Source of the DNA: Escherichia coli
GTDB taxonomy: Bacteria > Pseudomonadota > Gammaproteobacteria > Enterobacterales > Enterobacteriaceae
Strand: one strand, 5' to 3'
NCBI RefSeq assembly: GCF_011045215.1
Contig: NZ_CP049201.1
DNA: 64,000 nucleotides
In this document: piece after piece, positions 34,771-50,995 of the stretch
Numbering within the stretch: the first letter of the stretch is position 1
Layout of the letters: each line of letters begins with the position of its first letter
Made by a program: the position numbers and the translations under genes
Notes under the pieces: model-generated
What the model was told of the DNA's origin: nothing
The model's input: the letters and a program-made list of their open reading frames with translations, nothing else
Databases searched by the model: none

Positions 34771-35171
34771 TGTAGTGATTTTGCACGCAGCACGTACTGT
34801 CAGAGAAATCAGTGCTCTGACAGTACGCAAGATCTTCTCATACTCTCCAGGTTTACAACATTATCCTTAATATTTACTTCTTTTTGCTGGTATCTACATT
34901 GAAATGAGTAGAAAACATCCCCCTACTGTCGTCTATACAAACAGCTTACTGATTCAAAGGGAATCTTGTTTTCACATTTTTCTATCATGAATACTTTATA
35001 CGCGCGGGAGTCTATAAATGCTTTATACTTTCAAGGAATAACGTAAATATAAAAAGATGGCGTGAAGTATATGCATGGCAGGATGTTTGCAACCTCCTTG
35101 ATGACGCTGCCCCATTGAAATTGCAAACCCCGCCCTGGTTATCTTGCCCATTTATCATGCAAAACAGATAA

Positions 35172-47111: not shown

Positions 47112-48284
47112 ATGCGTCTGTTTTCTGTTCCTCCACCCACGCTACTGGCGGGGTTTCTGGCGGTATTAATTGGCTACGCCAGTTCAGCGGCAATAATCTG
47201 GCAAGCAGCGATTGTCGCCGGAGCCTCCACTGCACAAATCTCTGGCTGGATGACGGCGCTGGGGTTGGCAATGGGCGTCAGTACGCTGACTCTGACATTA
47301 TGGTATCGCGTACCTGTTCTCACCGCATGGTCAACGCCTGGCGCGGCTTTGTTGGTCACCGGATTGCAGGGACTAACACTTAACGAAGCCATCGGCGTTT
47401 TTATTGTCACCAACGCGTTAATAGTCCTCTGCGGCATAACGGGACTCTTTGCTCGTCTGATGCGCATTATTCCGCACTCGCTTGCGGCGGCAATGCTTGC
47501 CGGGATTTTATTACGCTTTGGTTTACAGGCGTTTGCCAGTCTGGACGGTCAATTTACGTTGTGTGGAAGTATGTTGCTGGTATGGCTGGCAACCAAGGCC
47601 GTTGCGCCGCGCTATGCGGTAATTGCCGCGATGATTATTGGGATCGTGATCGTTATCGCGCAAGGTGACGTTGTCACAACTGATGTTGTCTTTAAACCCG
47701 TTCTCCCCTCTTATATTACCCCTGATTTTTCGTTTGCTCACAGCCTGAGCGTTGCACTCCCCCTTTTTCTGGTGACGATGGCATCGCAAAACGCACCGGG
47801 TATCGCAGCAATGAAAGCAGCCGGATATTCAACTCCTGTTTCGCCATTAATTGTATTTACTGGATTGCTGGCACTGTTTTTTTCCCCTTTCGGCGTTTAT
47901 TCAGTCGGTATTGCGGCAATCACCGCGGCTATTTGCCAAAGCCCGGAAGCGCATCCGGATAAAGATCAACGTTGGCTGGCAGCTGCCGTTGCAGGCATTT
48001 TCTATTTGCTCGCAGGTCTGTTTGGTAGTGCCATTACCGGGATGATGGCTGCCCTGCCCGTAAGTTGGATCCTGATGCTGGCAGGTCTGGCTCTGCTAAG
48101 TACTATTGGCGGCAGTTTGTATCAGGCGCTGCATAATGAGCGTGAGCGAGACGCGGCGGTGGTGGCATTTCTGGTAACGGCAAGTGGATTGACGCTGGTC
48201 GGGATTGGTTCTGCGTTTTGGGGATTAATTGCCGGAGGCGTTAGTTACGTGGTGTTGAATTTAATCGCTGACAGAAACCGATAA
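47112..48284 (+). CDS. ydcO: BenE-family transporter YdcO
   Basis: MRLFSVPPPTLLAGFLAVLIGYASSAAIIW; 390 aa multi-TM protein. Confidence 0.85.
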   Translation: MRLFSVPPPTLLAGFLAVLIGYASSAAIIWQAAIVAGASTAQISGWMTALGLAMGVSTLTLTLWYRVPVLTAWSTPGAALLVTGLQGLTLNEAIGVFIVTNALIVLCGITGLFARLMRIIPHSLAAAMLAGILLRFGLQAFASLDGQFTLCGSMLLVWLATKAVAPRYAVIAAMIIGIVIVIAQGDVVTTDVVFKPVLPSYITPDFSFAHSLSVALPLFLVTMASQNAPGIAAMKAAGYSTPVSPLIVFTGLLALFFSPFGVYSVGIAAITAAICQSPEAHPDKDQRWLAAAVAGIFYLLAGLFGSAITGMMAALPVSWILMLAGLALLSTIGGSLYQALHNERERDAAVVAFLVTASGLTLVGIGSAFWGLIAGGVSYVVLNLIADRNR

Positions 48285-48290
48285 TAAAAA

Positions 48291-48310
48291 GCGCCATCTA
48301 ACGATGGCGC
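48291..48310. terminator. Hairpin terminator between ydcO and ydcL
   Basis: gcgccatc-taac-gatggcgc perfect inverted repeat. Confidence 0.55.
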
Positions 48311-48318
48311 AACTGGTA

Positions 48319-48987
48319 TTACTTTTTGTTAACGTCAAACATGGTGGCATCGGTCGCCATGTCATCAATAACTTGTTTAATATTTTCGAAAGCCATTGGC
48401 GTACTTTCGTTATTCAGGTCTTTACCTTCGCCCTGACGAACGACTTTGATAACCGGTTTATTAGTCGCTGCATCAATCAGCTCACCTTCAAAATAGAGGC
48501 GAGTATCCATGGTACGGTGGCCTGTAGCCATTTGCGTCCCCGCAACCACTAATGCAACAGGAACCACTTCATAGAATTGCAGCCCTTCTTTGCTGGTATC
48601 TACACCGGTAATGGCCCCACGGAAAATCAGACTACGCGGCCCAGCGGTGGTAACCAGTGGTTTACGCTGCGCTATCGCTTCTTTCATTTCGGTGTTGGTA
48701 TAGTTCAAAATTTTATCCAGAACTTTCTGCCCTACCTGGGTTGAAGGTTTCGGTACCGGATAATAAGTGATTGGGTTCCAGACGATGCTGTCATATTTGC
48801 TTTGATCAAAACTCGGGTCTACCCAACGTAAAACCGGTTTACCTGTAGCCGAGGTTGTTTCTTTTAAATCAGAGTAATTGTTTAAAAAACCAGAATATTT
48901 ATCTGGCTGGGTGATTTTAGAGGCACAACCAGACAGAGCCAACAAGCCGCATAAAGCTGCAACTTTCGCAAATGATGTGGTACGCAT
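48319..48987 (-). CDS. ydcL: Lipoprotein YdcL (222 aa)
   Basis: Lipobox LALSGC in MRTTSFAKVAALCGLLALSGCASK. Confidence 0.85.
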   Translation of the reverse strand: MRTTSFAKVAALCGLLALSGCASKITQPDKYSGFLNNYSDLKETTSATGKPVLRWVDPSFDQSKYDSIVWNPITYYPVPKPSTQVGQKVLDKILNYTNTEMKEAIAQRKPLVTTAGPRSLIFRGAITGVDTSKEGLQFYEVVPVALVVAGTQMATGHRTMDTRLYFEGELIDAATNKPVIKVVRQGEGKDLNNESTPMAFENIKQVIDDMATDATMFDVNKK

Positions 48988-49289
48988 GAATAGTTTCCTG
49001 AGATGATTATATTACTTTTTAAGTTATAGCAAAAAGCGCCGCTTCGTGTTGTGGCAAAAAAAGTGTTGGTGAAAATAAATTTTTTAGCCCCTTTTCAGAC
49101 GACATAGTCAATGCCGAAAAAGGGGCTAAGTCAATCATCAGTAGTTAAATTTCAGTAAGTTAAGCTGCTAAAAAACTTCGACTACTGTGATTAATTTCAC
49201 ATCCCTTCGATAAAAAATATGCTTACCGAAAAGAAGAACAGTAAACCATCTCAGCGTGGGGAATTTTCACGTGCTTTGTTCTTACCGGG

Positions 49290-49883
49290 TCATTTTTTAC
49301 GTGCCAGCATCGTGGCGAAACGCAGTTTAATACGATTACCGTTGGCGTCGGTGCGGTGCAGCTCGCCGACGTCCTCATTGTATTTCACCATCTCCCAGTC
49401 TTCGTAATATCGACGTAATTCTCCCTCTTTGAAGGCAAATGGGAAGCCGACGGTACATGGATAATCAGCGGTATCCATCGCCGCCACAATCAGGTTGTAA
49501 CCGCCAGGTTTCGTGCAACGTTGCATATTGGCAATCAGCCCTGGGATGGTTTTAGCCTCAAGGAACATCAGCACCACAGTCGAAAGAATAAAATCGTACT
49601 GTCCAGCAAATGTGAGGTTATTCAGATCAACGACCCGGGTGTGTAAATTATCCAGATTTTCAATAGATTTAATGCGCTCGACGTTGGCGATACTCATGGC
49701 ATTTTTATCCCATGCGTCAACATCATAACCATTGGCTGCCAGGTAAAGACTGTTACGACCATTGCCACAGCCCAGATCCAGCGTTTTACCCGGTTTAACC
49801 ACTTTCACCGCTTCCAGTACTTCAGAGTGTGTGCGGGTTAATTCATATTTATCAGTAAAATAGTTTTCGTCACGAATGATCAT
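49290..49883 (-). CDS. tehB: Tellurite methyltransferase TehB (SAM-dependent)
   Basis: 197 aa; SAM motif [15 protein letters not shown]. Confidence 0.9.
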
Positions 49884-50872
49884 TCTTTGTCCTCTGCTTT
49901 CATTAAAACGGCGCGCTCGGTTCTGACTAACAATTTTCCCTGCATCAGAAGCGCAAAAGTACGGATGAGCAGTATTGCAATAATAAAATTGGTAAAGATA
50001 AACAGCGGCACCGCCAGCGTATGGAAAAATCCATTATCGCTGCCACTCCCCAGATGCAAACCGGTGGTTGCCAGTGCAGATACGCCGAACGAGAAACTCC
50101 AGAATGAAGCATTAAATGGCTGGGAGAGATACCATGGCATCAGACGTAGCATAAACAGCAGTTGCAGCAGTCCATAACCGAAAAGCATTTTCGCCAGCGT
50201 GTCACCCTCGCCGCCGTTGACGCTCAGCCAGGCACTACAGGCCACCAGCGCAGGAGCGAGTTGAATGCCGAGAGATGTCCGCAGTGCCGTGGGTAATTCT
50301 CCCGAACTGCGCAGACGCTGCAAGATCACCGGTTCAAGGCTTAGCCATGAGAAAACGCCTGCGCCTAAAAACACCAGACCGGCGTCGGTGTAGCCCAACG
50401 CACCACAGGCCATTGCGCTGATAAAGTTGTTGGCAACTGTCGGCAGATACAGTCCAGGCGTGGTAGCTTCTTCAGGGTGAGATCCGCGCCATAATCCCGC
50501 AGTTTGCCAGGCGGCATAAGCCAACTGAACCACGACACCAAAACTGAACAGGCACACCGCCAGTGGGCGAAACCACGGAACAAAACCAATCGCCACCAGC
50601 ATCGTCGTTGCCGGAAACAAACTCACAAAACTGCTCAGCACTGGATGGCGAACTTCCGCCAGCACGCTATGCGGAAAGCGTATGAGTCGGGTAATAAATG
50701 CGCTAGTCAATAATCCCCAGATGATCATCGCCAGAATCACCAGCCCATCCCCTAACCAGTGGCTGACCTGCCAAACCTGGCTGGCATAGCGCCAGGCAAA
50801 TCCCATCCCTATCGTCCCCAACACAATACCAAAGTAGCCTGCCGGCAAATTGAGCACTTTATCGCTCTGCAT
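49880..50872 (-). CDS. tehA: Tellurite resistance / dicarboxylate-transporter-family membrane protein TehA (330 aa)
   Basis: [30 protein letters not shown]; 3' end overlaps tehB start. Confidence 0.9.
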
Positions 50873-50995
50873 CTTCTTACTCATTTTGTTTAATTTATAA
50901 AGTATATTTGAAATGCATTTTATGGAATTTTCTCGAGCATAGCCAGAGCCGCAGAATTTGCTACGGTTATAGTAAGTCACCTGTGGGAAAACGCT

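Follow-up and report, generated by a model that had tools for sequence, protein, structure and literature searches.

A putative 3′-end hairpin of tehAB transcripts in the tehB-ydcL spacer of Escherichia coli

In Escherichia coli, tehB and the lipoprotein gene ydcL follow one another on the same strand, separated by a single-copy spacer of 302 bp that is present in 5412 of 5426 complete genomes. A long palindrome lies in this spacer, and the question that it raises is whether it serves the end of the tehAB transcript, the control of ydcL or neither. The window analysed is a stretch of 64,000 nucleotides from one E. coli contig (NZ_CP049201.1). A sequence-only reading had placed the palindrome between tehB and ydcL, and both genes were confirmed there, both on the minus strand; RefSeq records, MG1655 included, hold no annotation in the spacer. 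The features referred to below are listed in the direction of tehAB transcription:

49880-50980, minus strand: tehA
49290-49883, minus strand: tehB, with its stop codon at 49290-49292
49170-49210, minus strand: T1, a hairpin followed by U6 (UCGA 49210-49207, UGUGA 49201-49197, loop, UCACA 49190-49186, UCGA 49181-49178)
49117-49129, minus strand: 5′ arm of the outer helix of T2, UUAGCCCCUUUUU, which includes the right arm (49118-49129) of the sequence-only reading
49097-49116, minus strand: interior of T2, with the inner helix CGGCAU (49116-49111)/AUGUCG (49105-49100)
49084-49096, minus strand: 3′ arm of the outer helix of T2, GAAAAGGGGCUAA, which includes the left arm (49084-49095) of the same reading
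49072-49083, minus strand: tail of T2, AAAA (49083-49080) and then UUUAUUUU (49079-49072), followed by CACC
49023-49033, minus strand: −10-like motif of ydcL, TTTGCTATAAC, conserved across about 10 genera and ~55 nt downstream of T2
48319-48987, minus strand: ydcL, lipoprotein gene

The palindrome and its RNA hairpin

The perfect 12-bp inverted repeat that had been proposed is real: its arms, TTAGCCCCTTTT at 49084-49095 and AAAAGGGGCTAA at 49118-49129, are complementary at 12 of 12 positions across a spacer of 22 nt, with the earlier coordinates (49086-49130) shifted by 1-2 nt. The corresponding position in MG1655 is 1,502,315-1,502,360. Palindromes whose perfect arms measure 12 bp or more and whose spacer is 3-30 nt occur twice in the window, a number above chance: 200 dinucleotide shuffles averaged 0.085 of them and never gave more than 2. 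The second one, at 34793-34827, has 13-bp arms and a 9-nt spacer (CGTACTGTCAGAG...CTCTGACAGTACG), and no others were found.

The palindrome is unannotated and single-copy, being found in 5406 of the 5426 complete E. coli genomes at a median of one place per genome. This copy number (one in the window, a median of one per genome) excludes REP/BIME or any other repeat family, and the RepRanger supplements that were searched gave no match to the palindrome. An origin from a mobile element (MITE, IS609-related) was likewise rejected: the palindrome is single-copy, IS609 is absent from the window, and the IS609 of K-12 lies on the other side of ydcL. In K-12 MG1655 that element (insQ/TnpB) sits between ydcL and ydcO, at a junction (48284-48319 in the window) from which it is absent here; in strain E66, ydcL and most of the spacer have been replaced by IS1 copies. 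A scan of 48800-49500 against Rfam 15 at permissive E-values returned sub-threshold noise only. The best match, STnc240 (20.8 bits against a gathering score of 55, E=2), was rejected because the locus of that sRNA is yeeY-yoeI.

On the tehB-sense (minus) strand the palindrome encodes an RNA hairpin, named T2 here, which begins 160 nt past the tehB stop codon and spans 46 nt. It consists of a 13-bp outer helix, whose 13th pair is U49117·G49096, a 3-nt bulge (UCU, 49099-49097) and a 6-bp inner helix, which varies between species and, if formed, leaves an apical loop of only 5 nt (UGACU, 49110-49106). The roughly 20-nt loop of the sequence-only reading thus stands as the distance between the arms but not as an open loop, as the 22 nt pair with themselves on the minus strand; with the inner helix counted, the remark that the loop is atypically long falls away.

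The sense-strand fold of T2 has a free energy of −25.3 kcal mol−1 (z −7.4), which none of 200 shuffles equalled, and the antisense RNA folds at −19.1 kcal mol−1, that is, ~6 kcal mol−1 more weakly. Weak predicted folding, which had been put forward as a finding that would speak against a terminator, was therefore not what the energy calculation gave on the tehB-sense strand. The stem is stable and GC-rich, as in intrinsic terminators, and its core helix GCCCC/GGGGC is conserved.

The 3′ flank of T2 and the segment upstream

A U-rich run had been noted behind the palindrome on the minus strand. The run exists, but it is separated from the stem, whose last pair involves A49084, by AAAA, so that no U-tract directly follows the stem (tail AAAAUUUAUUUU; T-tract score 1.06). 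The 15 nt at 49072-49086, which comprise the last three bases of the stem plus the tail, consist of A and U only. On an index of the d'Aubenton-Carafa type, T2 reaches about −48, while orthologous terminators of clear form score +12 to +24; the index was re-implemented with modern energy parameters, is poorly calibrated (12 of 80 tehB loci score above 0) and was used for ranking only. A simple consensus terminator scan, which allows loops of up to 8 nt, did not call T2. T2 is not a canonical intrinsic terminator.

Mapped 3′ ends were the other check that had been suggested. In the Term-seq tables of Adams et al. 2021, which cover three conditions and Rho-dependent regions, nothing is listed at MG1655 1,502,260-1,502,389, and the complete supplementary tables hold no entry for tehB or ydcL. 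The check accordingly yields no listed end at the locus in this one data set. As tehAB is presumably poorly expressed in the media concerned, the blank is weak evidence and neither backs nor refutes termination at T2.

The proposal of a tehAB terminator therefore survives in part. What stands is a stable sense-strand hairpin between tehB and a conserved promoter-like motif of ydcL, in the slot that tehB terminators occupy in other genera. What does not stand is the canonical form, given the tail, index, scan and 3′-end results above and the presence of T1 with its U6 some 40 nt upstream.

Compared with the intrinsic terminators of Enterobacteriaceae, T2 shares a GC-cored sense-strand stem-loop located behind the last gene of an operon, with a run of A and U only on its 3′ side and the promoter of the next gene beyond; it departs from them in the AAAA before UUUAUUUU, in a length of 46 nt with a bulge, which is longer than usual, and in its distance of 160 nt from the stop codon. 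RNA-DNA hybrids of rA:dT and of rU:dA are both weak, and from this general weakness an all-A/U hybrid behind a hairpin of −25 kcal mol−1 could allow partial termination. A second element kind is also relevant. Stems of REP elements and of terminators are known to block 3′ exonucleases, and REP/BIME and terminator stems act as 3′ stabilisers against PNPase and RNase II. Such stabiliser hairpins resemble T2 in being very stable and extragenic and in lying in a 3′ UTR between co-oriented genes, and they need no adjacent U-tract; unlike REP/BIME, T2 is single-copy and has no similarity to the REP consensus, and a stabiliser role for it is putative.

T1, in the tehB 3′ UTR ~40 nt upstream of T2, has the weaker stem. 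Its stem-loop (49178-49210) folds at −8.6 kcal mol−1 and is followed by AG and then by U6 (49175-49170), features that make it a second terminator candidate for tehAB. In other Escherichia lineages the lower helix of T1 shows pair-preserving states (G-C, G·U and A-U) and adjoins U6 directly, with d values of −8 to −14. Transcripts of tehAB may thus meet two imperfect signals in tandem. A further, upstream hairpin of 13 bp, H0 (~49203-49235), competes with T1 in the full-length minimum-free-energy fold.

T1 is contained in a spacer segment of ~130 nt (49140-49285) that is found in Escherichia only; the spacers of other genera measure 140-240 bp and do not have it. It is also missing from Escherichia sp. 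MOD1-EC7003, where T2 persists. Within the genus the segment carries invariant blocks, despite the fast-evolving stretch right after the tehB stop. It further contains a CRP-type site, TGTGAttaattTCACA, with a perfect TGTGA-N6-TCACA at 49186-49201, the sole one in the window (0.05 expected). Both half-sites, the same bases that form the upper stem of T1, are invariant in the seven Escherichia lineages that have the segment. The site precedes the putative start site of ydcL by ~177 bp, which excludes a class I or class II position, and neither tehB nor ydcL appears in the CRP SELEX list (Shimada 2011). On the plus strand, antisense to the 3′ end of tehB, a promoter-like TTCACA-16-TATGCT (49196-49223) overlaps a CRP-type half-site with its −35 and is conserved in six of the seven lineages as read by eye; a terminator-like hairpin on the same strand (49254-49272) comes after it. 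An sRNA, Ssr15, has been predicted computationally in the Shigella SF1779/tehB spacer on the opposite strand (Wang et al. 2016), and the antisense promoter-like site and the hairpin may lie behind this Shigella flexneri prediction.

Conservation of T2 in Escherichia and its slot in other genera

Of the complete E. coli genomes, 1650 have the 82 nt around T2 without any difference and 3750 match them at 95-99% identity. The main other haplotype, that of K-12 and others, has CUGA in place of CUAA, so that U·G replaces a U-A pair, a change that pairs validly in the tehB-sense RNA only. In O157:H7 a G occupies the innermost position of the outer helix and the tail has one extra A. The gap between the sense and antisense folds is 6-9 kcal mol−1 in E. 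coli lineages, while in non-coli Escherichia both strands fold about equally. Tandem duplications occur sporadically within the spacer: strain 104 (chicken) carries three copies of a 15-nt unit of the 5′ arm (GCCCCTTTTTCGGCA), APEC E14033 and AHB3 (human blood) carry a complex 36-bp duplication inside T2, and in Z1323PEC0011 a 42-bp duplication doubles the CRP-type site.

The genus was compared through eight Escherichia lineages, among them E. albertii, E. whittamii and genomes of cryptic clades that were reached via TehB. A 10-bp core, GCCCCUUUUU/GAAAAGGGGC, is essentially fixed across all eight, and the outer helix is 92% paired, with one position appearing as U-A, U·G and C-G. The three outermost pairs are specific to E. 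coli and unconserved within Escherichia, the 12-bp perfect form being restricted to part of E. coli, and in other Escherichia species the inner helix takes the alternative form UGAC/GUCA. Because T2 has 33 invariant columns out of 47 in the genus and the 50 nt that follow the stop codon have 15 out of 52, the comparison argues for T2 being under constraint. RNAalifold on the whole 3′ UTR retained the T2 helix, with almost no compensatory change in the other helices and an unfavourable covariation term (+2.04). Covariation within T2 runs in the right direction and is not significant in these eight close sequences, where 104-127 of 500 shuffles match the observed values.

The genes tehB and ydcL are likewise neighbours in Citrobacter, Salmonella enterica subsp. 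arizonae and diarizonae, Kluyvera, Yokenella, Trabulsiella, Pseudocitrobacter, Atlantibacter and others, and in each of these genera a strong hairpin is located between tehB and a conserved ydcL-proximal motif, TTTGCTAT(A/T)A(C/T). The hairpins of Yokenella, Trabulsiella, Pseudocitrobacter and Atlantibacter are canonical-looking GC hairpins with a normal U-tract. The orthologous terminators end 29-66 nt past the tehB stop, compared with 160 nt for T2. The short spacer of MOD1-EC7003 aligns with those of Citrobacter and Salmonella, and thus T2 shares its slot with their hairpins.

The hairpins of Citrobacter and of S. enterica subsp. arizonae and diarizonae have in common with T2 the flanks GATGATTG and AAATTTGTGC/AAATTTATTTT, a TTCGGCATT core and a tail that is first A-rich and then U-rich. 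Their stems are different: that of Citrobacter (CUGCGUUCG/CGAACGCAG) is unlike the Escherichia-specific outer helix (GCCCCUUUU/AAAAGGGGC), and so is that of Salmonella. T2 is therefore equivalent in position to the tehB-downstream hairpins of other genera, an observation on a par with its fold, its strand bias and its conservation. The slot thus keeps its hairpin potential while its sequence turns over, which is the behaviour expected of an RNA 3′-end element and not of a sequence-specific operator.

Proposed role and alternative readings

In TTTGCTATAAC, downstream of T2, a TATAAC-like hexamer comes directly behind a C at −13, and the motif resembles the −10 element of a ydcL promoter. A peak of the RpoS holoenzyme in genomic SELEX falls in the tehB>ydcL spacer (Shimada 2017), and together the conserved motif and this peak indicate that ydcL has a promoter of its own ~55 nt downstream of T2. 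Given such a promoter, an insulating 3′-end element between the two units makes sense. A second upstream motif of ydcL, ATTTTTGCCACAACA, is also shared by ~10 genera within 49023-49062 (minus strand); it lies 23 nt upstream of TTTGCTATAAC, a spacing too long for a sigma70 −35/−10 pair. A conserved GCCACAACAC-type motif is doubled by a direct repeat of two tandem 17-nt units at 49046-49079 (plus strand, GTGTTGTGGCAAAAAAA/GTGTTGGTGAAAATAAA), and this duplication is confined to Escherichia. Neither a promoter scan nor an inspection by eye of the two TTGACT motifs that flank or lie inside T2 pointed to a promoter leading out of the T2 region: the scan found nothing there, and the motifs have no −10 at the right distance.

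On balance we lean towards T2 being a hairpin at the distal end of the tehAB 3′ UTR that works as a weak terminator, as an exonuclease barrier or as both, and that insulates ydcL. In this mechanism, transcription of tehA-tehB from the minus strand would yield an RNA in which the stretch 160-205 nt past the tehB stop folds into T2. As a weak, non-canonical intrinsic terminator, T2 would act through the weak RNA:DNA hybrid of the A/U-only 15 nt, even though the A residues come first; as a barrier to 3′-to-5′ exonucleases, it would fix and stabilise the mature 3′ end of transcripts whose synthesis ceases at T2 or a little beyond. Either role would shield a separately promoted ydcL from tehAB read-through. 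We infer that tehAB transcripts end or are trimmed at T2, and the same applies to the split between termination and stabilisation.

A different and, in our judgement, unlikely history is that T2 is a functionless relic, an ancestral tehB terminator which the ~130-nt segment displaced from the stop codon and which lost its adjacent U-tract, with termination now left to T1, to Rho or to nothing at all (tehAB-ydcL read-through). The non-canonical tail and low terminator index of T2 would fit this history, as would an upstream T1 that has U6 and a covarying lower helix, the lack of listed 3′ ends (Adams et al. 2021) and the tolerance of tandem duplications inside T2 in some isolates; overall intergenic identity in the genus is high, so that conservation alone is weak evidence. 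Against this, the counts of invariant columns given above show T2 to be much better conserved than the part of the 3′ UTR next to the stop codon, and the helix in E. coli has been lengthened to 12-13 perfect pairs, with no decay. MOD1-EC7003, which is without T1, moreover keeps T2 with pair-preserving changes.

That the palindrome acts as DNA, either as the site of a dimeric or tetrameric regulator or as a cruciform, and controls ydcL from ~70-110 bp upstream of its start site, strikes us as very unlikely. The protein-binding alternative of the sequence-only reading is of this kind and is disfavoured by the comparison between genera: an operator should keep its arm sequence wherever ydcL is kept, but the arms are wholly different in Citrobacter and Salmonella, where hairpin potential persists, and are replaced in other genera as well, with the ydcL promoter motif conserved throughout. 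Within the genus the outer 3 bp are unconserved, and the substitutions pass through G·U states, which are compatible with an RNA helix and are mismatches in DNA. The position upstream of the ydcL promoter-like motif would suit a regulator, Escherichia shows no variation in the loop motif CATTGACTAT or in GATTGACT upstream, and the adjacent 17-nt direct repeats suggest a regulatory region. Against this, the centres of the half-sites are 34 bp apart, which would be unusual for a simple dimer, ATTGACT occurs in the window at chance frequency (8 found, 7.9 expected), and the papers retrieved for tehB and ydcL report no binding site here.

We give equally little credence to T2 as the 3′ hairpin of a separate sRNA, derived from the tehB 3′ UTR or made from a promoter of its own in the Escherichia-specific segment, or as part of the antisense Ssr15. 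An sRNA would account for the intergenic RNA as a whole folding far better than shuffles (z −5.6) and for the invariant blocks in the 130-nt segment, and the Shigella prediction points the same way; Ssr15, however, is outside the candidates validated by RT-PCR (Wang et al. 2016). T2 lacks the adjacent U-tail of Hfq-type sRNAs, the region has no Rfam match at the gathering score, the promoter scan found no consensus promoter upstream on the sense strand, and the helices beyond T2 are almost devoid of covariation. On the plus strand the T-run comes before the hairpin and thus cannot terminate an antisense RNA.

Also very unlikely, in our view, is that the Escherichia-specific tehB 3′ UTR, with H0, a T1 whose DNA carries the perfect CRP-type site, and T2, forms a conditional read-through module or a regulatory RNA derived from the 3′ UTR. 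Alternative pairings, in which H0 would compete with T1 and the upstream GUUUUUUAGC segment would compete for the 3′ arm of T2, would then set the flow of tehAB transcription into ydcL, or would release a stable, structured RNA of ~60-200 nt ending at T2.

Taken as the 3′-end hairpin that we favour, T2 is unannotated and ordinary and belongs to a well-known kind of element, and its relevance would extend little beyond annotation. It would add a 3′-end hairpin to the tehAB unit and mark the boundary with a separately, and probably RpoS-, promoted ydcL. It would also be a modest example of a terminator-slot hairpin that is kept by selection while its sequence and its U-tract turn over between genera, of a type that terminator predictors would miss.
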